Shown: in pieces, positions 6,002 to 23,642 of the stretch | Position numbering within the stretch: the stretch's first letter is position 1 | How the letters are laid out: each line of letters opens with the position of its first letter | Source of the DNA: a virus | IMG/VR virus record: IMGVR_UViG_3300032770_000012 | Location: 37,194 to 101,193 of that record | DNA length: 64,000 bases | Reading direction: 5' to 3' (one strand) | The notes under the pieces: model-generated | What the model was told of the DNA's origin: nothing | The model's database searches: none | What the model saw: the letters and a program-made list of their open reading frames with translations, nothing else | Translations under genes and position numbers: made by a program

Positions 6002-6881
6002 CACGCGCCTCCATGGCAGCCACTTCTTGTGCATACAGCGCCCGTAACAAAGCGCCCCCAAAATCTGTGGTGTCGGCGATAGATTCGCGGAGCAACTCCC
6101 CGTCCTCAAATTTTGGTTTGTCAATAGAGATCGGGCCCCATTTAGATTTGAATAAGCGGTAGAAACTGCGAATCCCGGCACCGCGCGCTCTCTCAAGGTC
6201 TTCGGTCGTTATGATTCCTCCAACTAACGCAAGGCACAGATCTTGGCACACATCGCAGCGCACGTCGTAAGGAAGTGACTTAGGCACGAAGTCATTTACC
6301 GCCTTGATAATCGGGTCGTCCGTGTTTCCGAACGGCCAGACTTCTGATAGCGGCTTCCACTCCCATTTCGATCTACCCCGTGGAATATATACGGATCTCC
6401 GCTGTCCGGCAAGCACTCCAGAGAAATGGGATCTTACAAAGGCTTGGCGAGCAGGGCTGTTTTTATATCGTTCCGCGCACCATCCTTTGTGGCCAGAAGG
6501 TTGGCCGCATCCACACAGCGGATTCATGCCAGCAGCTCTGAGTTCGCGCATATATTTCTGCGCCGTTCCTTTTGCTACACCCGCCATCTCAGATGCTTTT
6601 CGTATACTGTGCCCGTCGGTCAGAGCCTGAATCAAGGTTCTTTGTTTTTCGCTTTCAATGACCCGTCCAGTGCGCCCATCGGCGCGCGGTTCAGTCAGGA
6701 TGCGGCGATGGGCAGCGCATCTATATCTCTGCCTGCCGTCGCGACTAAAGCCGAAGCGGAGTGCCTCTATTTTGCAGATCGGACAGATCACTTGCGCTCT
6801 CGAACCTCCATCGAAACCTATAATCAAATTTTCTCGAACAACTCCCGCGAAACCCCATTGCTTTGGATCTCGATCCCCCAA
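5991..6881 (-). CDS. InsA-like Zn ribbon/HTH fused to a sigma-like C-terminus; putative regulator
   Basis: CPIC...FGFSRDGRQRYRC, HTH SIRKASEMAGVAKGTAQKY, CGCG...HKGWC, C-terminal ISIDKPKFEDGELLRESI. Confidence 0.6.
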   Translation of the reverse strand: MGDRDPKQWGFAGVVRENLIIGFDGGSRAQVICPICKIEALRFGFSRDGRQRYRCAAHRRILTEPRADGRTGRVIESEKQRTLIQALTDGHSIRKASEMAGVAKGTAQKYMRELRAAGMNPLCGCGQPSGHKGWCAERYKNSPARQAFVRSHFSGVLAGQRRSVYIPRGRSKWEWKPLSEVWPFGNTDDPIIKAVNDFVPKSLPYDVRCDVCQDLCLALVGGIITTEDLERARGAGIRSFYRLFKSKWGPISIDKPKFEDGELLRESIADTTDFGGALLRALYAQEVAAMEARGAL

Positions 6882-7041
6882 CTTTCTCGAACTTCCAAAT
6901 TCATAACCCCTTTGTTTCCGTCTCCGATCCTTGTAAGTGGTAGACTACAATTGATCCGACAGTCAATTGATTATCCGCCTATCCTGTTGATATAACATCA
7001 CTTCCTTCTGAAAATCCCCGAGGTTATTACGAGAAATCCGT

Positions 7042-7284
7042 TCATGCTGGATAGTTCCTTAGCTCTGCCGCATCTTCAGCAAGGTTCAACTTTCGAGCGC
7101 TCGCGACCATAGCTCCGTCCCAGACGCCCTGTAGGTAAGCCGATGCAGACAGATTGGTCAAATCCACTGTCCCTAGCGATGCGAGATTTGCGGCAAACTT
7201 CACGAAGGGCTCCATGCGCCGCACAGCAAAAGCGTAGTGCTCGTGCGGAACTTCGATACGCTCAATGGGTAATCTCTGTTTCAT
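7042..7284 (-). CDS. Hypothetical protein
   Basis: Probable ATG at 7284 (MKQRLP...). Confidence 0.55.
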   Translation of the reverse strand: MKQRLPIERIEVPHEHYAFAVRRMEPFVKFAANLASLGTVDLTNLSASAYLQGVWDGAMVASARKLNLAEDAAELRNYPA

Positions 7285-7483
7285 TTTTTTCGATCCGCGA
7301 GGCGGCCTCATGCAATGTCGTGAACGTATGATCCTGTCCCGGTCTGTAGTGCCCGGCCCATCGCTCCGCCCGTAAACAGAACCTGCCGTCCTCGATGTAG
7401 AAGCATGGCGGTCCACCGTTTTGACGAACCTGCTCCCAATCGGCAACCGCGCACGCCTCTAGAAACTCCTCTCTCTTGCTCAC
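7262..7483 (-). CDS. Hypothetical phage protein
   Basis: GTG at 7483 overlaps the upstream TGA; DWEQVRQNGGPPCFY...CLRAERWAGH. Confidence 0.6.
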   Translation of the reverse strand: MSKREEFLEACAVADWEQVRQNGGPPCFYIEDGRFCLRAERWAGHYRPGQDHTFTTLHEAASRIEKNETEITH

Positions 7484-7671
7484 TGCTTCACCCCTCCCGG
7501 CTCGTCGGCCCAGTGCGTAGGCTCGTAATACACGTACATGCTCTTGTCTGGAAAGAACCAGAGCCGACCGAACCGCACGAGCGGCTGGACGTTTCGCTCT
7601 CCATGCTAATCGTGAATCTTGGTGAGCACCTCGACATTCTCGGGCGCGGTGGCAATTGGTTGCCAGTTCAT
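7480..7671 (-). pseudogene. DUF551-like small phage protein with an in-frame TAG
   Basis: MNWQPIATAPENVEVLTKIHD*HGERNVQ...YYEPTHW; TAG at 7608-7606; WQPIxTAP and PTHW signatures lie in one frame on both sides of the stop. Confidence 0.8.
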
Positions 7672-8180
7672 TGGGCGTTTTGCTCCCTGAGCCATCGCTG
7701 CCAAGCTGCATCGCCCGGCTTTGCGCCTTCCGGTGGACCGCCAGGGCCCTTGGCCGGAGCGCGCTTCTTAACCGCAGGCGGATTCTCCACCGGGACCATG
7801 TTGCGCACCCGTGGCGGACTCACGGAGCGCTCAATGTTCTCGGCTATACCGGCCTGAATGCGCTCGATCTCAGGAGTTGGATCGGGCGGAAGCGCCTCTG
7901 GATTCGGATTCGCTTTCCTCGATCGCCTGTGCGGCGCTGGATCGTCATGACTACCCTCGGCAGCGCCCAAAAGAGCCCTGGGACTTCCCGTAGCCAACGC
8001 GAGAGGCTCTACAAACTCCGCCGTTAGAACCTCAGTCTTTGTAGCCAGCGAATCAAGCGCATCCTCCACTGCCACCCGGCACCAATCCGATATCGTCCGC
8101 CGCCCTCTACGCGCAGCCGCATTGATCCGCCCGTATACCTCAGGCTCTACCATGATCTTAATCTGGTTCGTTCTGGGCAT
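7668..8180 (-). CDS. Ribbon-helix-helix-type DNA-binding protein with Pro-rich tail
   Basis: ATG 8180: MPRTNQIKIMVEPEVYGRINAAARRGRRTISDWCRVAVEDAL. Confidence 0.7.
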   Translation of the reverse strand: MPRTNQIKIMVEPEVYGRINAAARRGRRTISDWCRVAVEDALDSLATKTEVLTAEFVEPLALATGSPRALLGAAEGSHDDPAPHRRSRKANPNPEALPPDPTPEIERIQAGIAENIERSVSPPRVRNMVPVENPPAVKKRAPAKGPGGPPEGAKPGDAAWQRWLREQNAQ

Positions 8181-12828: not shown

Positions 12829-13038
12829 ATGCATAGAACGTTTTGCATTGAACGCATTCAAACCGGGGAGCGCGGTATTCAGTACTGGCTTTCCTACGAT
12901 GACGAGATTTACACGCTCGCCGAAGGCAATGAGCGTATGCGTTTTCTCATTCAGAATCAGCCGGATTGCGACTTTAGGCTGATTGAGATTTTGAGTCACA
13001 GCGTAGACTTGCGGCAAGCGCACGGGGGTTCCCGATGA
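12829..13038 (+). CDS. Hypothetical protein
   Basis: AAGGAG RBS; ATGA overlap with the AAA gene. Confidence 0.65.
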   Translation: MHRTFCIERIQTGERGIQYWLSYDDEIYTLAEGNERMRFLIQNQPDCDFRLIEILSHSVDLRQAHGGSR

Positions 13039-14033
13039 CGCCAGCTTGCCCGGTTAAACCATCCGAACTCGTGCGCGCCTTAACGCTGCTCTATGAGGCC
13101 CGCCATCCGGCGCATGTCTGGGGAAGCCCAGGGACGGGGAAGTCCAGCGTTATGGCGCAAGTCGCTGACTCGCTTGGCATTCAGCTTATCGACGTGCGCG
13201 CCGTCCTGCTCGATCCGGTGGACTTGCGGGGACTGCCGCATATCAACGGCGGCGGGCGCTCGCATTGGGCCATCCCTGACTTTCTGCCGCGCGAGGGCGC
13301 TGGCATTCTGTTTTTCGATGAGGCCAACCGAAGCGCGCCATTGGTCCAGAACGGATTGCTTCAGATCACGCTCGACCGTCGCTTGGGCGAATACCGGCTA
13401 CCTGACGGTTGGTGTTGCATGCTGGCCGGTAACCGCGAGTCGGACGGCGGCGGCGTCACAAAGCTCAATTCGGCGCTGTCTAGCAGGTTGACTCACCTAG
13501 ACTTACAGGTCGATATGGACGATTGGTGCAAGTGGGCGCTGAGCGCCGATGTTGAGCCGCCCGTGGTAGCGTTCCTGCGATTCAGGCCGGAACTGCTGGA
13601 CAAGTTCGACCGCACCGCTCGCGCCTATCCTAATCCGCGCTCCTGGAGCTTTGTTTCCCGGATCGTGGCGAGCCATCCGGACGCTACCGTCGAGCACGCG
13701 CTATTTGCGGGCACGGTCGGCGAAGGTGCTGCTACCGAGTTCTCAGCCTTCATGCGGCTTTATCGGACCTTGCCAGACATGGATGCCATCATCGCGAAAC
13801 CGGACAAAGCGCCGGTACCGGATCGCCCGGAAACACTGTTTGCTGTAGCGTCCGCGCTGGCGCGCAAAGCTAACGTCCAAAACTGGGCGCGCATCCTGAC
13901 CTATGCCGAACGACTGCCGGAGGAATTTTCCATCTACATGGTGAAAGATTCCGTCATGATCCACCGCGAATTGAACGAAACAAAGGAGTTGACTAAGTAC
14001 CTGATCGCTCACAGCGACGTTGCCTTGGCGTGA
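13035..14033 (+). CDS. MoxR/CbbQ-like (AAA_5-type) AAA+ ATPase
   Basis: Walker A GSPGTGKS, Walker B ILFFDEANR, sensor 1 AGN, ALSSR, PNPRSW. Confidence 0.93.
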   Translation: MTPACPVKPSELVRALTLLYEARHPAHVWGSPGTGKSSVMAQVADSLGIQLIDVRAVLLDPVDLRGLPHINGGGRSHWAIPDFLPREGAGILFFDEANRSAPLVQNGLLQITLDRRLGEYRLPDGWCCMLAGNRESDGGGVTKLNSALSSRLTHLDLQVDMDDWCKWALSADVEPPVVAFLRFRPELLDKFDRTARAYPNPRSWSFVSRIVASHPDATVEHALFAGTVGEGAATEFSAFMRLYRTLPDMDAIIAKPDKAPVPDRPETLFAVASALARKANVQNWARILTYAERLPEEFSIYMVKDSVMIHRELNETKELTKYLIAHSDVALA

Positions 14034-14101
14034 GTGCCCGCTTGCAGCGGATTCCACGGAGTCCGCTGCCGGGGGACGCATTCCCCATACAGGAGACGAA
14101 C

Positions 14102-14949
14102 ATGGACAGTATTACTTCGAAAGCAATGCTCACATCGCTGAGCATCCGCGCTTGGACGGCGGTGAGGCATGACCGCAAGGTCAGTGCCGAAGTAGCGGCG
14201 GCGCATAACTCGGACGTTCACTTTGGACGTTACAATAAATCGCTGGTCGCGGCCAGCGCCCTGGAACAACTGAAAAAAATAGGCAGTGCCGCACGCTTAG
14301 AGCACTACCATCGCACGCTCCCCTGGTCAGAGGACGGCTACCGGATTTTGTCGAGCGCCGGGTATTTCCCCGCACTCAGTACGAGGCGGCAGTCCAAGAC
14401 TTTTGTTCGGCTTATCCGCAGTACGTGGCGGATGCCAAGCAATCCCTTAACGGTCTGTTCAACGAAGCCGAGTATCCCAAGGCCCACGAGATCGAGCGGA
14501 AATTCGGCTTTGAAATCACCGTGCGCCCGGTTCCCGATGCCGGGGACTTCCGCGTCGATCTGTCAGCGGATGAAACCAACCGCATTCGGCAAGAGATTGA
14601 GCTATCGGTCGAGAACACCGTGAAGGCCGCGATGCAAGACGCCTTTATCCGGCTCAGGGATGTGGTGGGCCATATGGCCGAAAGATTGACGCTCTATACC
14701 GAAGCGCCTAACGGCAAAGTGGTTAACCCATTCCGCGATACCGTTGTAACCAACATCACGGATTTGCTGGACGTCCTGCCGTCGCTCAACTTGACTGGCT
14801 CGCCAGAGCTTGACGCATTTGCCGATGAAGTGCGGTCCAAGCTGGCGAACTTCAGCCCCGACCAACTGCGCAATTCCGCCGTCATCCGCAATTCGACCAA
14901 AGAAGCCGCTGCCGAGATCCTCAAGAAAATGGAGGACTTCCTGAAATGA
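14102..14949 (+). pseudogene. DUF3150-like coiled-coil partner of the AAA/VWA module, split by a frameshift near 14368
   Basis: First frame ...HYHRTLPWSEDGYRILSSAGYF, then continues in the -1 frame as RTQYEAAVQDFCSAYPQYVADAK...LGLFN-like EYP...LNLTGSPEL. Confidence 0.75.
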
Positions 14950-15203
14950 ACGAGGCTTTCACGCACGCTCGTAAGGGCGACAAATTCTTTAAGTTCGTCT
15001 GGCTTTCGAATCTTGGCACGGAATATTCCAGCGGTCGCGACGTGGCTGAGGCCTTCGGAAGCGCCGGTTACAGTGCTGGAGCGCTAGCGGCTTTGGATTA
15101 TCACGCCGAAGTTTTCCCCTGTAAAGACTGCGATTTTATTGGGGATTCCAAGGCCGATCTGACAAAGCACAAGCGCTCTTGTGGAAAGAAGGTATCAGCA
15201 TGA
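14946..15203 (+). CDS. Small protein with C-terminal C2H-type Zn finger
   Basis: FPCKDCDFIGDSKADLTKHKRSC; ATGA overlaps at both ends. Confidence 0.65.
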   Translation: MNEAFTHARKGDKFFKFVWLSNLGTEYSSGRDVAEAFGSAGYSAGALAALDYHAEVFPCKDCDFIGDSKADLTKHKRSCGKKVSA

Positions 15204-17179
15204 CCAAATCACTCCCGATGGATGCTGCCAAGCTGATGAGCCGGGCGCGCACTAAGCTGATGCTCAACCATCCGTGGTTCGGTTCGCTCGCCATGCGCCT
15301 GAGAATGCAGGAGCGCTCCGACATCCCCACTATGGCGACCGACGGAACGTATCTGTTTTATAATCCTACGTTTACGGCGTCATTGAGTGAAGCGGAGCGC
15401 TTAGGCGTGGTTGCACATGAGGTAATGCACGCCTGTTTGGGTCATGTATTTCGTCGCCAAAACCGTGACCCGTATAGGTTTAACGTTTCCTGCGATCTGG
15501 CGATTAACCCGATACTGATCGAGGCGGGCCTGACTTTGCCCAAGGGCGTGCTGATAGACGACAAGTTTAAAGGCATGTCTGCTGAGGCGATATACGCCCG
15601 CCTTCCTATCAACCAGCAGGGGGGCGCTGGTAAGGGATCACCGCAATCCGGGGGCGCTCCTAGCGCCCCTAATGGCCGAAGATCGATGGGGAATTGTCCG
15701 ACTGGCGAGTTTTGGGACTCACCTTCTATCGGATCTTGTCCAGATCCGGACGCCATGACGGAGCAAGACTGGCGCATTGCGGCTGAGCAGGCTTGCCAGA
15801 TAGCCCGTAAAGCCGGTAAACTGCCAGCGAGTCTTGACAGGGCGGTCGAGCAGGGCCGAAAGAGTCGCACGGACTGGCGGGCGCTCTTGCGTGAGTTCAT
15901 ACAATCCACCACGCCGAGCGATTATTGCGTCGGGCCGGAAACGATGGTCCTACGAGCAGATCTCACATGGGCACGCGCTGACGAGATCAAGATCGGCGAT
16001 GAACTAATCGGGGTCGATGAACACCCCGCTCGCTCCGTTGACACCAATGTGTATGGGCGGAGACGCGTCCGCGTTTCAGTGGTTGAGTCCGCCCATACCT
16101 TCAATTCCACTAGACTCGCGGTGACTACGGATCGGGGGACAACGATTGTCACCCCCGACCATCGCTTTCTCTGTTTCAAGTCTGGCGGCAAACTCCATTG
16201 GAAGTACGCAAAGAATCTCCGCCAAAATGATCAAATCAAAATGCTTCTACAACCATGGACCGAGGATTTATCTGACTCATGGCTAGCCGGGATGCTTGAT
16301 GGTGAAGGAACATTGACAGCCAATCCGGCGACATCGCCCCGTTCCGGCCTGAACCTCCGCATTAGCCAAGCAGAAGGCCCCGTGCTTGACCGCGCTGTCT
16401 CTGAGTTTGCTAACTTTTCATCAGTTGCGAAACGGATAAAGATATGCAAACCGCCTAGACATCTCGGCTCTCAAGTGATCGGAGAAGTGATAGTCTGTCG
16501 TGTGGCAGATGTTCTCCGTATTATCGGCCAGCACCGACCGACTCGATTGCTGCCAAAAATGCTCGATATGATACGGCGTGGTTATTTTTCTCTGCCTCGC
16601 TTGGACAGGGCCACTGTGCGTAGTGTCACTCTTTGTAAACCTGGATCAGTTGTTGCCATTCAGACCACTACACGCACGCTCATAACTGACGGCCTAATCA
16701 GCCACAACTGTTGGTGCGCCCCCAGCAGGCGCTACATTTCGCAGGGTTTGTACCTTCCGGGGATCGTTAAGGAAGGCATGGGGCCTATTGTGGTGGCGAT
16801 CGATACCAGCGGGTCAATCACGCGCCGGATGCTCAACGTGTTCGCCGCCGAGCTATCGGAGATCCTGACAGAGTGCCGCCCGGAATCGGTGGAGGTCATC
16901 TATTGCGATGCGGCGGTCCAATCCACGGAGACATTCACGCCCGATGATGGCTTGGTAGAACTCAAGGCCAAGGGCGGCGGCGGCACGGCATTCCGGCCCG
17001 TTTTTGAATGGGTTGCGGACCATAACTTAGAGCCCGTCGCGATGGTGTATGCTACGGACCTGGAGAGCTTTGACGCGCCCGACGATCCGGGAAGTTATCC
17101 GGTTCTGTGGCTGACGCCGGAGGACGTATCGCGGGGCGTCCCATTTGGCCGTCATGTGCCGGTGGACGTGGAGGATTGA
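15200..17179 (+). CDS. DUF2201-type HEXXH metallopeptidase-VWA protein containing an intein
   Basis: TMATDG, AHEVMH, MIDAS IDTSGS, GGGGTAF, ATD. Confidence 0.92.
   Translation: MTKSLPMDAAKLMSRARTKLMLNHPWFGSLAMRLRMQERSDIPTMATDGTYLFYNPTFTASLSEAERLGVVAHEVMHACLGHVFRRQNRDPYRFNVSCDLAINPILIEAGLTLPKGVLIDDKFKGMSAEAIYARLPINQQGGAGKGSPQSGGAPSAPNGRRSMGNCPTGEFWDSPSIGSCPDPDAMTEQDWRIAAEQACQIARKAGKLPASLDRAVEQGRKSRTDWRALLREFIQSTTPSDYCVGPETMVLRADLTWARADEIKIGDELIGVDEHPARSVDTNVYGRRRVRVSVVESAHTFNSTRLAVTTDRGTTIVTPDHRFLCFKSGGKLHWKYAKNLRQNDQIKMLLQPWTEDLSDSWLAGMLDGEGTLTANPATSPRSGLNLRISQAEGPVLDRAVSEFANFSSVAKRIKICKPPRHLGSQVIGEVIVCRVADVLRIIGQHRPTRLLPKMLDMIRRGYFSLPRLDRATVRSVTLCKPGSVVAIQTTTRTLITDGLISHNCWCAPSRRYISQGLYLPGIVKEGMGPIVVAIDTSGSITRRMLNVFAAELSEILTECRPESVEVIYCDAAVQSTETFTPDDGLVELKAKGGGGTAFRPVFEWVADHNLEPVAMVYATDLESFDAPDDPGSYPVLWLTPEDVSRGVPFGRHVPVDVED
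15926..16708 (+). mobile_element. Intein (261 aa) with LAGLIDADG endonuclease motif
   Basis: Cys1 CVGPETMV, block B TPDHRF, WLAGMLDGEG, terminal His-Asn followed by Cys+1. Confidence 0.92.
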
Positions 17180-17523
17180 TTGACGCGGTTCGTTGTGATC
17201 TCGGAAGGTGTTACGTTTCGCGTAGATCGTGTATGGACGCAGATTGGCGAGGTTTATATTTTGTCAAGCGCAAACTGGGGCGCGCCGAGCGGGAGGCGCT
17301 CCCGAAGGTCCGCAACATCTACGACGGCAAACAGGTAACGGTAGAGGACTTACGTGGAATCCCCGCCGATGACGCCAGGGAACTCGCTATGAGGATCATG
17401 GTGTTCGGAGCGGAGATCCATATCGGCATCGATCTCAGCGTCCTGAACAACTACACTCAGAGATACTCAAAGGCAATGGATACGATCTACAAGACCTCTC
17501 CGTTGTACAAGCTGAAGTCATGA
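17176..17523 (+). CDS. Paralogous array protein 1 (start uncertain)
   Basis: VTVEDLRGIPADDARELAMRIMVFG motif. Confidence 0.7.
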   Translation: MIDAVRCDLGRCYVSRRSCMDADWRGLYFVKRKLGRAEREALPKVRNIYDGKQVTVEDLRGIPADDARELAMRIMVFGAEIHIGIDLSVLNNYTQRYSKAMDTIYKTSPLYKLKS

Positions 17524-17867
17524 TTATCGCGATGCAGAAGCGCGCCGGATTCGCTACCTACGGGGATAGCATTACAAACGCACTGTCCGATCAGACCTAT
17601 ACCGGCAGCAACTCTCGCGGGCCGTCCTGGGCGTACTTCGTTGTGACGGAGGAAAAGGACCCTGAGCGGATCTCGTGGCGCTGGCGCGCACATCAGCCGG
17701 AAGTTATGGTTTTCGAGGGATTTATTCCGAAACTGGAGCAACTCTGGGACGGCAAGGCCGTTACCATCGAGGACTTGCGCGCCGTCGAGTCGGGAGACAA
17801 AGAGGCGGCGGCGTTGGCGCTCCGCATCATGCTGCTCGGAAACGGACGCGACTCGCCACCATTTTAA
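17520..17867 (+). CDS. Paralogous array protein 2
   Basis: VTIEDLRAVESGDKEAAALALRIMLLG. Confidence 0.75.
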   Translation: MIIAMQKRAGFATYGDSITNALSDQTYTGSNSRGPSWAYFVVTEEKDPERISWRWRAHQPEVMVFEGFIPKLEQLWDGKAVTIEDLRAVESGDKEAAALALRIMLLGNGRDSPPF

Positions 17868-17903
17868 TCCGTTTTGACCTCCATTCTGATATACTGGTCG
17901 GAC

Positions 17904-18341
17904 ATGAAAATATGCTTTAAGTGTCATTCACTCAAACCTTTGGATGACTTCTATGAACATCCCAAGATGAAGGATGGTCATCTAGGAAAATGCAAGCAGT
18001 GCGCAAAGGATGATTCGAATGCAAGGCGCGCTGAAAAACTTGAATCTGTCAGAGCTTACGACAGAGAGCGCGCACAGAATCCTGCCAGAAAAGCGGCGGT
18101 ACGTCGCTATGTGAGGGCGCGAAACTTGCGCTATCCGCAGAAACGAAAAGCTAGAATCGCTGTCGGCAACGCTATACGGGACGGATTATTGGTCAAGCTG
18201 CCATGCGTTCGGTGCGGCGACGAAAACGTGGAAGCCCATCACCATGATTACTCAAAGCCTCTGGAGGTGATTTGGCTGTGCTACCTACATCATAGAGAAA
18301 TCCACGCAGAGATAAAACAACAGGCAATTTCAATGGTTTAG
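17904..18341 (+). CDS. HNH endonuclease
   Basis: KICFKC...DGHLGKCKQC Zn finger; CVRCG...EAHHHDYSKPLEVIWLCYLHH. Confidence 0.85.
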   Translation: MKICFKCHSLKPLDDFYEHPKMKDGHLGKCKQCAKDDSNARRAEKLESVRAYDRERAQNPARKAAVRRYVRARNLRYPQKRKARIAVGNAIRDGLLVKLPCVRCGDENVEAHHHDYSKPLEVIWLCYLHHREIHAEIKQQAISMV

Positions 18342-18344
18342 AGC

Positions 18345-18587
18345 ATGGGAATCTACGCAAAGAGCGGCAAGTACATGGATGTATATCGGGCTGAATTCTT
18401 CTCCGGTCACTGGCGCTGGCGCTGGCTGACAATCAGAAAACGCCAATCAACTTATTGCCTTAAAGCTAAAGTGGTTCATGGTGTCTATTCCGCCGCTTTT
18501 GTCACGGTCGAGCATCTCGCGCAATTCCCGCAAACTGATGAGGTTAAAGCGCTGTCCATGCGTATCCTGATGGGGATCGGACAATGA
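18345..18587 (+). CDS. Paralogous array protein 3
   Basis: VTVEHLAQFPQTDEVKALSMRILMG. Confidence 0.75.
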   Translation: MGIYAKSGKYMDVYRAEFFSGHWRWRWLTIRKRQSTYCLKAKVVHGVYSAAFVTVEHLAQFPQTDEVKALSMRILMGIGQ

Positions 18588-18982
18588 AACTGCCGAAATT
18601 ATACTGCCGGTCCGATGCCGGTCGAGTCTTTATGCTGGATTTGCGATACACCTACAATTTACACATTGAGTGGCGGCGGCATGGGGGGATCTTATTCCAA
18701 TCCGAGAGCCAACTACCATTTACTCCGGCTGCCGCCGTTTTAGTATGGTCTCCATTTTTGCTGCGCATTGAGGAAACCAAAACTATTGGAATCACACCGT
18801 TTATACGCATGCTTGAGGAAACCAAAACTATTGGAATCACACCGTTTATACGCATGCAAGACAGAGGAGAGCCGAATCCGGCAAATTCTGTTCTGTTCAG
18901 AATAGAGGACTTGAAGCACTTCCCGCAAACCGATGAACTGAAGGAATTTGCCATGCGGCTGACGTTGGGGTTGCCGGAATGA
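18584..18982 (+). CDS. Paralogous array protein 4 (15-aa internal duplication)
   Basis: FRIEDLKHFPQTDELKEFAMRLTLG. Confidence 0.75.
   Translation: MKLPKLYCRSDAGRVFMLDLRYTYNLHIEWRRHGGILFQSESQLPFTPAAAVLVWSPFLLRIEETKTIGITPFIRMLEETKTIGITPFIRMQDRGEPNPANSVLFRIEDLKHFPQTDELKEFAMRLTLGLPE
18768..18857. repeat. Perfect 45-bp in-frame tandem duplication
   Basis: ttgaggaaaccaaaactattggaatcacaccgtttatacgcatgc x2. Confidence 0.95.
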
Positions 18983-19245
18983 TATTGTGCCGGGACGCAA
19001 GCGGGGTAATTGTGCGCTTGTTTTCGGAGGAGGGGTTCTATTGGTGGGAGGCAGCATGGCTGGCGGCGGTCTGGTGTTCTCCGGAGGAAGCAATCCCTAT
19101 GGTAGAACAGATCTCTGTTCCGGACGATTGGCGTGGTCTTATGCGGTTTCCTGTCAAACTAGAACACTTAGAAACTTTAGAGCAGACCGACGAACTCAGG
19201 GAGGTCGCCATGCGGATCATGCTCGGGATCGGAGCGCCGGAATGA
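18979..19245 (+). CDS. Paralogous array protein 5
   Basis: VKLEHLETLEQTDELREVAMRIMLG. Confidence 0.75.
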   Translation: MILCRDASGVIVRLFSEEGFYWWEAAWLAAVWCSPEEAIPMVEQISVPDDWRGLMRFPVKLEHLETLEQTDELREVAMRIMLGIGAPE

Positions 19246-19541
19246 TGGATCTGCCGAAGTTATTCACGCGGGGCGGGGCGAACGGACCGTATTGGCAGCT
19301 TCAACGACTGGTACTGGATGCTCCAGACCGGCCCGTCCGCTTCGTCTTTCAATGGGCCAATGTGCAGCACGAATACTTCCGAACTGAAATTCTCAAGGGG
19401 GCCGCTGTTTCCCAAATGCTGATGCAGCGGTTGCCCAATAGGATTCACAACCCGTTCCGGCTGGAAGATCTGAAGGGCTTCCCTCAGACCAACGAAATTC
19501 GGGAATTCGCCATGCGAATTGCGCTCGGTTTGGAACCGTAG
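19242..19541 (+). CDS. Paralogous array protein 6
   Basis: ATG 19242 (ATGA overlap); FRLEDLKGFPQTNEIREFAMRIALG. Confidence 0.75.
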   Translation: MMDLPKLFTRGGANGPYWQLQRLVLDAPDRPVRFVFQWANVQHEYFRTEILKGAAVSQMLMQRLPNRIHNPFRLEDLKGFPQTNEIREFAMRIALGLEP

Positions 19542-19693
19542 CATTCTCGCCCTTTGACGGCCAAAATTCACGCCGATTTGTTGGGCACTTTTGGTCAAAA
19601 CTAGGGTTTCGATGCGTCCAAGGGGCCAGAAACGTGCCGAAAATTTGACTTCTTTGTTCTGGCGATGCTAGGCTTTGCCTAGCACCCAAAAAA

Positions 19694-20275
19694 ATGAATC
19701 TGGCAAAAAGAGAGCGGACGAAACTTGGACGACTTCTCCTCGAAATTCAAGTAAGACAATGGGAAGAGGAAAAGCGCCTGTTCAAAAAGCCCGTCGAATA
19801 TCACGGTCTCAGCGGGACTCCAGAATATAGATCCTGGAGCGCAATGATTTCAAGATGTCTCAACCCTAGAAACGATTCGTTTGACAACTACGGCGGTCGC
19901 GGTATCAAGGTGTGTTATCGATGGAGAGAATCCTTCGTTGCTTTCTACAAGGATATGGGTCCGAAACCAAGGCGCGGCCTGTCAATCGATCGCATTGACA
20001 ACAATGGTAACTACGAGCCCGGAAATTGTCGTTGGGCTGGTACTTTTGAACAATCTCGCAATATGAGGAAGAACATTCTTATTGAGCACGATGGTCGCAC
20101 GCACATCATCAGCGATTGGGCTGTTTTAAGCGGGATACCATTGAGTTTACTGAGCTACCGTCTCAAGCGTGGTTGGTCTTTTGATCGAGCTATTTCTACT
20201 CCGGTAGCCAAGTCTGTTCCGCGCCAGCGCCCTTCGCTTCAGTTGGACCCGGTGTGCGGTCCGATGACCGCTTAA
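19694..20275 (+). CDS. HNH homing endonuclease
   Basis: EYRSWSAMISRC...YGGRGIKVC...SIDRIDNNGNYEPGNCRWA. Confidence 0.9.
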   Translation: MNLAKRERTKLGRLLLEIQVRQWEEEKRLFKKPVEYHGLSGTPEYRSWSAMISRCLNPRNDSFDNYGGRGIKVCYRWRESFVAFYKDMGPKPRRGLSIDRIDNNGNYEPGNCRWAGTFEQSRNMRKNILIEHDGRTHIISDWAVLSGIPLSLLSYRLKRGWSFDRAISTPVAKSVPRQRPSLQLDPVCGPMTA

Positions 20276-20687
20276 CCGAGCCCTTCGTGTCCAGACTGGA
20301 CGGATCGAAGTAATCGGCTAGTTTGGGGGCCTTCTTACGGACCTTCTTGGACAGCATTTCCTCGCGGACTTTCTGGGTTCGTGCGATCATCTGGTCGGGC
20401 GGCAACTCCATGAAGGCTTCCATCAGGTAGTTGACCCGCTCCATGACGTAGACTAGATACTCGACCGACTCGGACAGCCAGCGTAGGCTTTGTTCGGTGC
20501 GGTGGGGTACCAGCACATGGGCGGCGACCTGCTTAACGTATTGCGGATGGCAACCTACAGCCTTAGCGATCTCTTCGTTCTTGACGCCCTTGTCCAGCAT
20601 ATCCCTAATCGCGGCGGCTCTGGACTCGTACTGACCCCATGGCTTCTTGCGGTTCCTGGGTGTTTTTTCTTGCATCCTAGCGGACAT
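20196..20687 (-). CDS. HTH transcription regulator (repressor candidate)
   Basis: AIRDMLDKGVKNEEIAKAVGCHPQYVKQV HTH; lone leftward gene divergent from the recombination operon. Confidence 0.7.
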   Translation of the reverse strand: MSARMQEKTPRNRKKPWGQYESRAAAIRDMLDKGVKNEEIAKAVGCHPQYVKQVAAHVLVPHRTEQSLRWLSESVEYLVYVMERVNYLMEAFMELPPDQMIARTQKVREEMLSKKVRKKAPKLADYFDPSSLDTKGSVKRSSDRTPGPTEAKGAGAEQTWLPE

Positions 20688-20707
20688 TCTACCACGGTTC
20701 ACTATTC

Positions 20708-20740
20708 TTGTTGACAACAATTACAGGATGCAAGTAAAAT
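20708..20740 (+). promoter_or_regulatory. Promoter with palindrome TTGTTG-A-CAACAA over -35 and a GATGCAAG box
   Basis: TTGACA-18 bp-TAAAAT; 28/33 identical to 43802-43834. Confidence 0.75.
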
Positions 20741-20762
20741 GCAGATGGAGACGACGTAACGC

Positions 20763-20966
20763 ATGACCCCTACAAAGAGCGTAATGCTGCGAGCGTTACT
20801 GGCGCAAATCTCTTACCGGCTGGCCGACACCTATCAGATCAGTTCCGGTTTAGGCGGGCGATCAGTGGACATCAACGAACTGGCGAGCACAATCCAGGAA
20901 TCGGCGGAGACGTTCGAGAAAGATAATCGCGGACAGTTTGAATTCAAGGCGGCTCCCCGTGCTTGA
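20763..20966 (+). CDS. Hypothetical protein
   Basis: GGAG RBS; first gene after the promoter. Confidence 0.6.
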   Translation: MTPTKSVMLRALLAQISYRLADTYQISSGLGGRSVDINELASTIQESAETFEKDNRGQFEFKAAPRA

Positions 20967-21268
20967 CGCGCTGGTCCCCATGCCGCCGTCACTCGCCGAT
21001 CCCGATGCGCTTTGTAAGTGCGGCAATCGGGCCGGGGACCATGTTATATCCGGCCATTGCGCATGGTGCGGATGCACCGGATTTGTACCTGCGGAGGCCG
21101 CATGAGCTTGGGCGATAAGATTGTCGATCATCCGAGTTTCGGAATGGTTGGAGCGAGTCATGTTAGCTCTACCGGCACAAAGGCCGAACAGGTCAAGACG
21201 ATTTTCGTAGAGCCTTACATTGCGCATACACGCGCCCTGAAACTAATCGAAAACAAGGAAGCAAAGAC

Positions 21269-22867
21269 ATGCCAGATATAACGGTGCGGCAACCGCAGCA
21301 ACAGATTACCGTGGAGCGGGGAAAAGATATGTTTCCCGACGACGCCGAGCTTTCCAAGATGTGGGACATGGCGCGCGCCTTTTCAACCACGAATCTTGTG
21401 AGGCGGCATCTTCAGAACAATGCGCCTGCGATCTTTTACAGCCTGAACATCGGGAAAGAACTCGGTATCCACTGGAGCCATAGCCTGCGCAGTCTGTACA
21501 TTACAGACAAGGGTGAGGTCGGCGTAGAAGGTAACATCATCGGATCTTTGCTTTGGTCCAAAGGATTCAAGATCACAATCAACGAATCCACCGATAAGCG
21601 CGCCGAAGTAACGATCACGCGGCCCAATGACGGTGGCTCCCATACCGATTCATTCACCATCGAGGAAGCGGCCAAAGCTGGTCTTACACGCCGCTGGAAC
21701 CGGGATAAGCAGGAATACGTTGACGACTTCTCTTGGAAAGCGTACCCCAAGGACAAGCTCTATTGGCGCGCCCTGATGCGAACCGCCCGGCGTGTCGCCG
21801 TCGATGTGATGTACGGACTTTATCTTGACGATGAACTTCGCGAGTCCGAGCGCGCCGAACGTGATGCGGCGCTAGCGTCTGGAAACGGAATGCCGTCCGA
21901 TTCGCAGTCGGAACAACTCGAAGCAGCCAACCAGTATTACGTCGGGAAGAAACAGCCATCCGTGGAAGCCGAAGCCGAGGCCCATATTGTTTCAGCCGAG
22001 CCCGCGCCGCCCGCTGGTTCCAATGCCGAATTTTCGCAAGCCGCCAAGGAACGTGCGGCTGCTAACAAGAAACCGGAAGCGCCTGCTACAACTGCGTCGT
22101 CTCCTGATAGTGGTTCGCAGGCCGCTCCGGTCGATCCGGGGAAGGGTCCTGGCGGGCTAACCGGGACGCAGTCACCTTCCCCGGAATCAGAACCTTCTAA
22201 GCCCGCCGCCGATCAGGGCATGGCTGCGGCTGTGAAGGCCAAGATTTTGGAGTTGACCGACAAATGGCCCACGCTATCGCCCGAAGTCGCTAAGCAGAAA
22301 CTTCAGCAGGCCGTGAAGGGATGGCACGGAGTCAACCGGCTTCCTACCGACCCCAAGGCGTATCTGTCTCCGCTTGCCGCCATTGAGTGCGCCATGAAGT
22401 TCGAAGGCGGCGTGATCGATCAACTACTGAAGCGGGAACCTGCGCAGTTTGGCAAAGCAGCCAAGACCGCTTTCGATCAGGTCAATGCGAAGATGGCCGA
22501 CTGGAAATGGCCGGGTCCGGTGCGGGCGCTGGCACTGGAGGTTTGGTACCTCCGCATGAGCCCGCTGGAGAGCGATGAGTTTATTGATTGGATTCAGAAT
22601 ACCCTTGAGATCTCCGGTCTGCCCGAGAAGGATTTGGCACCGTTCTTTGAGTGCGCCCTGATTTCCCGCCAATGTTTCCGGCTGGTGTTGCTATCGCGCA
22701 AGCTGAATCTGCCCGTCTCGGAGTTAGCAGGATCTTTCTTGCGGGATCAGCCGCATGAGGAGCGCGCTCTTACCAACTGGCTGGACGGTCTGGAAAAGCA
22801 GGACACCATCAAGACCGAGGATGACGCTCCTACCGATTCCCCGCAAGAAGCGCTGCCCTGGGAGTGA
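21269..22867 (+). CDS. RecT/Red-beta-like single-strand annealing protein with long C-terminal extension
   Basis: IGKELGI...SFTIEEAAKAGL...WKAYPKDKLYWRALMRTARRVAVDVMYGLY. Confidence 0.8.
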   Translation: MPDITVRQPQQQITVERGKDMFPDDAELSKMWDMARAFSTTNLVRRHLQNNAPAIFYSLNIGKELGIHWSHSLRSLYITDKGEVGVEGNIIGSLLWSKGFKITINESTDKRAEVTITRPNDGGSHTDSFTIEEAAKAGLTRRWNRDKQEYVDDFSWKAYPKDKLYWRALMRTARRVAVDVMYGLYLDDELRESERAERDAALASGNGMPSDSQSEQLEAANQYYVGKKQPSVEAEAEAHIVSAEPAPPAGSNAEFSQAAKERAAANKKPEAPATTASSPDSGSQAAPVDPGKGPGGLTGTQSPSPESEPSKPAADQGMAAAVKAKILELTDKWPTLSPEVAKQKLQQAVKGWHGVNRLPTDPKAYLSPLAAIECAMKFEGGVIDQLLKREPAQFGKAAKTAFDQVNAKMADWKWPGPVRALALEVWYLRMSPLESDEFIDWIQNTLEISGLPEKDLAPFFECALISRQCFRLVLLSRKLNLPVSELAGSFLRDQPHEERALTNWLDGLEKQDTIKTEDDAPTDSPQEALPWE

Positions 22868-22870
22868 TCG

Positions 22871-23281
22871 GTGCCAATCCTTTGCTCGTCCTTCATCAAG
22901 TACGCATGGGACTCTCGCCCTGGGTCAGGTCATTATACTGCGTTCCAGCTTGAGGCCGTATTCGATCCCAAACGGAGCGTCTGGTTGTGGCAAGAGGTCC
23001 GGGAGCACACACAGACTCAGATCAAAGACCCGGATAAGCTTTCTGCTGTCTGTTCGAGTTTGGGTCCGCTGATCTTGGATGTTCATCCCTTACAGCCGGT
23101 GAAACCCGAGCAGTTAGAGTTTCTTGGCAGCGATGAGGCCCGAGAACTCGCCATGCGTATCCTGATGGGGATCGGACCTAAAACCGAACCGGAGAAAGAT
23201 TGGTGGGATCGTCCAGATCTGGACAGCCGCACGCAGCGGCTGAAGCTGGCGAATCATCCTCGATTCAAGGTGAACGCATGA
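22871..23281 (+). CDS. Paralogous array protein 7 (dispersed copy)
   Basis: VKPEQLEFLGSDEARELAMRILMGIG. Confidence 0.75.
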   Translation: MPILCSSFIKYAWDSRPGSGHYTAFQLEAVFDPKRSVWLWQEVREHTQTQIKDPDKLSAVCSSLGPLILDVHPLQPVKPEQLEFLGSDEARELAMRILMGIGPKTEPEKDWWDRPDLDSRTQRLKLANHPRFKVNA

Positions 23282-23454
23282 AACCGCTGGTCCTTTTGGC
23301 GCTCCTTGCTTTCTCCGCCTGTCCCGGTTCGGTGCCATGTCCGATTGACGGCCTGAGTTCTACCTGGACCGGCAGGAGTCATTACGTCGATGGCGTCATG
23401 ATCGGCGCTTACCGCTGCCCGCGAGGGCACACGTTTGAGGTTGCATGCCCGTGA
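23278..23454 (+). CDS. Small secreted or lipoprotein-like Cys-rich protein
   Basis: ATG 23278: MKPLVLLALLAFSAC signal/lipobox-like; CPID...YRCPRGH. Confidence 0.55.
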   Translation: MKPLVLLALLAFSACPGSVPCPIDGLSSTWTGRSHYVDGVMIGAYRCPRGHTFEVACP

Positions 23455-23642
23455 AGAGGATCATTCGGGACATAGCGCTCGTTATCGCTTCAGTAGAGAT
23501 TTTGGTTTTGGTGTGCTTCAGCATCTTCCCGTCTCCTCTACCGGAATACGCAGTTTTGTCGGTTGGGTTTATCGGCGTGATAGCGGCTATTTTGGCTGGT
23601 AGCGGGAGGCACGAATGACTTTTGAGCAGCGCAGGGGAGACA

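Follow-up and report, generated by a model that had tools for sequence, protein, structure and literature searches.

Seven small genes of an uncultivated phage, found in a 64,000-nucleotide (nt) stretch of its genome (bases 37194 to 101193 of IMG/VR record IMGVR_UViG_3300032770_000012, called the window below, to whose numbering the phage coordinates refer), form one family of old paralogs marked by a shared 25-residue element. These are genuine genes, for which the analysis shows paralogy, coding status, purifying selection, and translational coupling. The family is restricted so far to this one complete 101-kb phage, whose genome of 101,193 bp has direct terminal repeats and is rated 100% complete. 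Six of the genes (g1 to g6, the array) lie in one operon with a module made up of a MoxR-type AAA+ gene and a metallopeptidase-vWA gene, with overlapping stops and starts, and g7 lies 3.3 kb away in a RecT operon (Table 1). The explanation that we tentatively put first, a serious candidate although short of probable, is that the products are lineage-specific, diversified small accessory proteins made early or midway through infection, in which the conserved helix of the element would hold the fold together as its keystone and probably offer a shared contact surface as well. The fold, the common contact face, and a host-directed role are what we infer from the sequences.

Seven paralogs with one shared element

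All seven open reading frames (ORFs) carry the motif h-x-h-E-[DHQ]-L...[DN]-[ED]-x-[RK]-[EA]-x-[AS]-M-R-[IL]-x-x-G (h, hydrophobic), in which E, L, R, and the helix-capping G are invariant, while M, A, I, and D are each replaced in a single copy of the seven. The most diverged version is that of g2, where L replaces M and there is one residue extra. Along the motif, a strand (h-x-h) leads to the invariant Glu and Leu; a loop, often reading F-P-Q-T, then connects to a helix ~13 residues long that begins with acidic residues and is capped by Gly. A motif-only hidden Markov model (HMM) of 29 positions gave the seven copies 49 to 62 bits, against 5.4 bits for the next best six-frame ORF anywhere in the genome, and the full-length family profile matched exactly seven places in it. 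These are the ORFs that a first-pass annotation, made from the sequence alone, had singled out. The same annotation described the motif as C-terminal, which holds for five copies; in g1 and g7 it is internal, followed by 38 and 36 residues, respectively, and these two tails bear a weak resemblance to each other. Four of the seven proteins terminate 3 to 5 residues past the motif helix, and, depending on the copy, the element falls within residues 52 to 129.

The first-pass description of six near-tandem genes, mostly ATGA-coupled and with one HNH gene inserted, was borne out by the overlaps of stops and starts (TTGA for vWA/g1 and ATGA for g1/g2, g3/g4, g4/g5, and g5/g6) and by the inserted gene, which belongs to phrog_2340, with the correction that g1 starts with TTG and not ATG. 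We place this start at 17176 because the first 19 residues read from there are homologous to the N-terminal hairpin of the family. The GTG start of g7 lies 3 nt downstream of the stop of a RecT-like gene and is preceded by GGGAG, and the stop of g7 is in turn ATGA-coupled to a lipoprotein-like ORF. The final codons (G-I-G, G-L-P-E) give purine-rich GGA/GGAG stretches a few bases ahead of the following start codon, which may add constraint at the extreme end of g3, g4, and g5.

Over the 20 aligned motif codons and the 21 pairs of copies, the proportion of synonymous differences (pS) was 0.78, that is, at saturation, while that of nonsynonymous differences (pN) was 0.31. Saturated synonymous sites combined with conserved amino acids indicate old protein-coding paralogs rather than a DNA repeat. 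GC content by codon position follows GC3 > GC1 > GC2 in all seven ORFs, as it does in the long ORFs of the genome. Pairwise protein identities of 19 to 42% and tree branches of more than one change per site likewise indicate that the duplications are old. The motif DNA is 64 to 83% identical between copies over 44 to 46 nt, because the amino acids are conserved and not because of a nucleic acid element, and an Rfam search gave no match. With seven copies, six of them near-tandem, and pN at this level compared to pS, the family has the makeup of a lineage-specific tandem paralog expansion.

An identical run of 27 nt is shared by g3 and g7 at the 3' end of the motif (18556 to 18582 and 23151 to 23177), while the identical runs of the other pairs do not exceed 12 nt. 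Given identical amino acids and the codon usage of the genome, the chance of such a run is ~6e-4 per pair and ~0.01 over the 21 pairs, and one small gene conversion tract between g3 and g7 is plausible. Shuffling of cassettes at the DNA level as a general process was rejected, as the long identical run is found only in this pair. We also noted in g4 a perfect 45-nt tandem duplication (18768 to 18857), which encodes a 15-residue repeat and represents either a very recent event or an assembly artifact. The 27-nt run and the g4 duplication could be taken as signs that there is no functional family at all and that the similarity stems from a DNA or RNA element present in several copies, from gene conversion in the recent past, or from faulty assembly. 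This is barely credible, and the saturation of synonymous sites alongside the retention of amino acids largely refutes it. The shortness of the identical runs in the other pairs, the Rfam result, and the coding-like GC pattern argue in the same direction, and the idea of an RNA element was rejected on the pS and pN values and the Rfam search.

To our searches the family appears as an orphan. None of the seven proteins had a match better than an E value of 0.05 in Pfam-A, PHROGs v4, NCBIfam 20, or PADLOC-DB 2, and the family profile retrieved nothing at an E value of ≤10 from the PDB sequences. A word-indexed search of 5.8 billion protein clusters returned only the phage's own proteins at near lengths and none at longer lengths, an exhaustive HMMER search of 1.84 billion representatives found only the seven own proteins, and a search of the ESM Atlas gave no usable match. 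Degenerate DNA patterns of the motif produced 0 and 5 hits in IMG/VR, 8 in JGI metagenomes, and 3 in 185,579 species genomes (one genome per prokaryote species), all of them chance matches in unrelated frames or proteins. The first-pass view of a paralogous family without a named relative agrees with the searches of family libraries, the PDB, and protein clusters. The result is a clean orphan multigene family, whose seven copies are old and under selection and for which billions of proteins yielded no relative; this mainly shows how thinly this phage lineage has been sampled. The closest MoxR homolog of the phage is 60% identical, the nearest homologs (57 to 60%) being encoded on long metagenome contigs, and scans of IMG/VR with a single MoxR or RecT protein recovered no close relative of the phage.

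A common scaffold and its predicted fold

The first-pass annotation had called the N termini barely alignable and aromatic- and Trp-rich, and had pictured a constant helix carried by different variable domains. The regions preceding the motif are indeed very diverged, but when local alignments were scored against 300 shuffles, 8 of the 21 pairs beat the shuffles at a P value of ≤0.05 (~1 expected), and these pairs link all seven proteins. With g1 read from its TTG, three elements can be aligned across all copies: the hairpin at the N terminus (h-C-R-x-x-x-G-h-h-h), the W-x-W strand, and, in the middle, a segment in which a Pro is conserved. The sharing of one weak scaffold implies that whole proteins were duplicated and then diverged, and the picture of unrelated domains on a constant helix does not hold. 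As for composition, Trp is enriched, although not to an extreme, aromatic residues making up 9 to 15% of the seven proteins. Their sizes range from 80 to 136 amino acids (aa), and their isoelectric points (pI) range from 4.4 to 9.9.

Two AlphaFold2 (AF2) runs, for g3 and g7, were made on the seven-sequence alignment. The model of g3 has three strands followed by helices (mean predicted local distance difference test [pLDDT] score of 58.7), and that of g7 has a beta hairpin and three helices (mean pLDDT of 58.6, predicted template modeling score of 0.47). Both agree on the order of long strands, a helix, a short helix at E-[DH]-L, and a main helix at D-E-x-R-E-x-A-M-R-I, and confidence is highest over the motif region (pLDDT of 70 to 80). 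Column by column, conservation extends to charged positions and a Met alongside the hydrophobic ones. When the helix is placed on a wheel by hand (not as tool output), the hydrophobic residues seem to gather on one face, which probably packs on the sheet, and the near-invariant Met, the invariant Arg, and the acidic residues on another. This second face would either serve all copies as a contact surface or hold salt bridges within the helix.

If the seven are diversified accessory proteins, as we tentatively prefer, they would be whole-length paralogs of a single small protein, built as one domain around a core of ~80 aa, each copy comprising the N-terminal beta hairpin (h-C-R-x-x-x-G), the Trp-rich W-x-W strand, a middle helix, and the 25-residue strand-turn-helix element. 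The element is most likely the keystone of this fold, as a capped amphipathic helix (acidic N terminus, Gly C-cap) packing on the sheet, and the helix face with the conserved Met, Arg, and acidic residues may contact one shared ligand or the other paralogs. The remaining surface has diverged so much, both in identity and in pI, that the copies are probably no longer redundant. Their translation within two early/middle DNA metabolism operons (MoxR-vWA and RecT-exonuclease) points to action inside the infected cell, where the most plausible role would be that of accessory host interaction proteins, in takeover or counterdefense. Several points weigh against this explanation. The conserved charges could do no more than form salt bridges within the helix (E with R at i, i+4), in which case no shared partner would be required. 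Both AF2 models are of low confidence (mean pLDDT of ~59), and fold searches with them reached a best Z score of 3.2 and no Foldseek match at an E value of ≤0.001, giving no evidence of a new fold. Finally, with no homolog, fold match, or family match in these searches, there is no function to transfer.

The second conserved face of the amphipathic helix would also be in keeping with an inter-subunit contact, in which case the seven proteins could be subunits of a single hetero-oligomeric complex whose amounts are matched by translational coupling. The tight coupling of g1-g2 and g3-g6 and the retention of all seven copies despite saturated divergence fit this idea. Such a complex nevertheless seems unlikely, since g7 is expressed from another operon, the HNH gene splits the array, a helix of this length is short for a bundle, and the subunits would span the whole range of pI and size given above.

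By eye, the stretch T-D-E-h-R-E-h-A-M-R-I-x-x-G has a T-to-G spacing like that of the first helix in a sigma region 4 or LuxR-type helix-turn-helix (HTH) of degenerate form, and the tails of g1 and g7 contain a further predicted helix, which might suggest small DNA-binding regulators. We consider this extremely unlikely. In the four proteins that end just past the helix a full HTH is impossible, a Pfam scan at an E value of ≤1 contained no HTH family, the PDB profile search was empty, and pI goes down to 4.4. A whole-genome search with PF04545 gave five subthreshold matches, all outside the array, and the sigma region 4 idea was rejected on this basis.

The MoxR/vWA module and the gene neighborhood

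The first-pass annotation also proposed that the constant helix docks on a common partner, for example, the AAA+/vWA machine encoded directly upstream, and that the variable domains recognize different host targets such as defense proteins. The support for a functional tie between the family and this module consists of adjacency and translational coupling. Worked out further here, the proposal makes the seven proteins adaptors or clients of the MoxR AAA+/metallopeptidase-vWA pair, with the constant element docking, for example, through its invariant Glu on the metal ion-dependent adhesion site (MIDAS), and the variable part picking targets for remodeling or cleavage. Overlapping stop and start codons link six of the seven genes to the module. 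In the vWA domain the D-x-S-x-S motif of the MIDAS is intact and the peptidase HExxH is also kept, as judged from the translation and Pfam, and the family motif holds an invariant Glu; MIDAS sites bind an acidic ligand residue. However, the module is widespread (848 phage records; 3116 MoxR homologs at an E value of ≤1e-20), and when we examined 80 viral IMG/VR loci with a MoxR homolog and 10-kb flanks, in 76 of which the vWA gene could be located, none contained the family. The full profile had no match at an E value of ≤1 among their 17,254 six-frame ORFs, and the motif-only HMM reached 9 bits at best, so that no co-occurrence of the family with the module was seen in these loci.

What follows the vWA gene in relatives differs from one to the next. 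Unrelated ORFs of 64, 140, 121, and 61 aa are found in the closest relative (locus L016), three small unrelated ORFs in Vibrio phage VBP47, and ThyX in cyanophage S-TIM5, which marks this position as a variable slot. By a crude ORF-chaining count, a run of at least three short ORFs directly follows vWA in 17 of the 76 loci, and there is none in 33. The location of g7 in the RecT operon also argues against adaptors of the module, as does the opinion from published comparisons that MoxR and the metallopeptidase-vWA protein act as paired chaperones in virion assembly (PMC7824862). On balance, a role as adaptors or clients is quite unlikely. The bolder version, in which a constant tag plugs into MoxR/vWA via the MIDAS and seven beta-sheet heads deliver different host proteins for unfolding or cleavage, is decidedly improbable; if true, this interchangeable set would be a multitarget system for host takeover or counterdefense of an undescribed kind. 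The module described in the literature (PMC7824862) is intact in this phage, where it immediately precedes the array and is translationally chained to g1 to g6, but elsewhere hundreds of phages carry it without the family, and we regard it as a neighbor rather than as the finding.

Tandem arrays of small paralogs were also seen in other phages with the MoxR module, at positions 6794 to 8059 and 12990 to 15807 of locus L094, 4034 to 6617 of L081, and 343 to 1655 of L080. They are unrelated to the family, and in a filtered all-against-all comparison of the 80 loci these small-gene arrays had no fixed position relative to the module. In L016, around positions 13600 to 15800, the peptide-like string P-L-P-A-A-G-E recurs in out-of-frame intergenic ORFs, which suggests a repeated intergenic DNA motif.

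By gene content, the array region belongs to the early/middle DNA metabolism portion of the genome. The order is MoxR-type AAA+ gene, a frameshifted conserved middle gene, a zinc finger ORF, the metallopeptidase-vWA gene with its intein, the array, an HNH gene, a minus-strand HTH gene, the RecT-like gene (21269 to 22867), and g7. After g7 come small membrane ORFs, KTSC and PilZ-like ORFs, an exonuclease, helicases, a replication initiator, and a DnaB-like gene. The vWA homolog of L016 is uninterrupted, with 382 aa counted from the likely start Met. The middle gene of the module (14030 to 14949) is split over two overlapping frames with a junction near 14344 to 14368. Residues 18 to 105 of the L016 homolog align in one frame up to 14368, and residues 106 to 304 align from 14344 in another; a sequencing error, a genuine frameshift, or programmed frameshifting may account for the split. 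Three homing-type elements lie within 4.5 kb around the array, namely, the intein and two free-standing HNH genes, the one inserted in the array and another at 19694 to 20275. The ORF whose ATG overlaps the stop of g7 encodes 58 aa with a lipoprotein-like signal (L-L-A-F-S-A-C) and is followed by an overlapping hydrophobic ORF of 57 aa (23278 to 23618 for the two). One copy of a genome-wide palindrome, GTCCAGATCTGGAC, lies at 23211 to 23224, within the C-terminal tail of g7.

TABLE 1 Positions in the window of the seven family members and of neighboring features
Feature	Position	Strand	Motif position	Motif HMM (bits)	Remarks
g1, 115 aa	17176..17523	+	17332-17406	53	TTG start overlaps vWA stop (TTGA); 38-aa tail after motif
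g2, 115 aa	17520..17867	+	17757-17837	49	ATGA-coupled to g1
g3, 80 aa	18345..18587	+	18498-18575	62.5	Minimal member
g4, 132 aa	18584..18982	+	18893-18970	59.7	ATGA-coupled
g5, 88 aa	18979..19245	+	19150-19227	61.4	ATGA-coupled; acidic (pI 4.4)
g6, 99 aa	19242..19541	+	19452-19529	60.4	ATGA-coupled; last in array
g7, 136 aa	22871..23281	+	23096-23170	53	GTG start; 36-aa tail after motif
MoxR AAA+ gene	13035-14033	+			Context only
MoxR/vWA module to g1	13035..17179	+			Context; chained to g1 via overlapping stops/starts; functional tie to the family putative
Metallopeptidase-vWA gene	15179-17179	+			Pfam DUF2201_N (E value, 5e-49) and DUF2201 (E value, 3e-30)
Intein, 261 aa, within metallopeptidase-vWA gene	15926-16708	+			Insertion between ...PSDY and CW...
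Free-standing HNH endonuclease gene	17874-18341	+			phrog_2340 endonuclease (E value, 5.5e-37); interrupts array between g2 and g3; outside the family

Comparison with known systems

In logic, the closest analog appears to be the T-even internal proteins IPI, IPII, and IPIII and their polymorphic relatives, which are likewise small, extremely diverse phage proteins sharing one short conserved element (PMC3012670). The internal proteins of T4 are counterdefense factors, for example, IPI* against GmrSD (PMC3012670). That work describes the T-even proteins as highly diverse small proteins with a single short constant element; since the arrangement is the same in our family, its element might be read as a tag by which varied cargo is targeted to the capsid and later injected, like the T4 capsid targeting sequence or the cargo-loading peptide of encapsulins. 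This is very unlikely. In T4, the prohead protease cuts off the element, a peptide of ~10 residues at the N terminus, whereas in our family it is 25 residues long, folded as a strand-turn-helix in the AF2 models, and located near the C terminus or internally. The T4 prohead protease site is (L/I)-x-E; before the invariant Glu of the family, in contrast, P2 and P4 are hydrophobic and P3 is polar (T, R, or K). The remainder of each protein shares a weak common scaffold, the genes lie in replication/recombination operons and not among virion genes, and there is no sequence similarity to the T4 proteins. An encapsulin-type cargo peptide is short, Gly-rich, and placed at the extreme C terminus, and nothing of that kind was found, as the element is predicted to be helical and in g1 and g7 is followed by the long tails. 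The analogy with the T-even internal proteins would accordingly be one of logic, the sequence features that define them having been looked for and not found in the seven proteins.

Another case of many paralogs of one small domain in a single genome, probably with diversified specificity, is provided by the ~35 zinc ribbon copies of Bacillus phage G (PMC7824862). The zinc ribbon is a known and widespread fold, whereas the seven-copy family described here has no relative outside one genome and no recognizable fold. Should the element prove to be a docking surface common to all seven, this phage family would illustrate in compact, natural form how a single constant handle can serve many diversified heads, and new activities for host targeting or counterdefense might be obtained from it. 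Clusters of early accessory genes, anti-CRISPR and host takeover arrays among them, are likewise made up of small, fast-evolving, tightly packed genes without database relatives, situated in early or middle regions by homing endonucleases. Such clusters usually hold unrelated proteins, while the array and g7 hold seven paralogs with one strongly conserved element.

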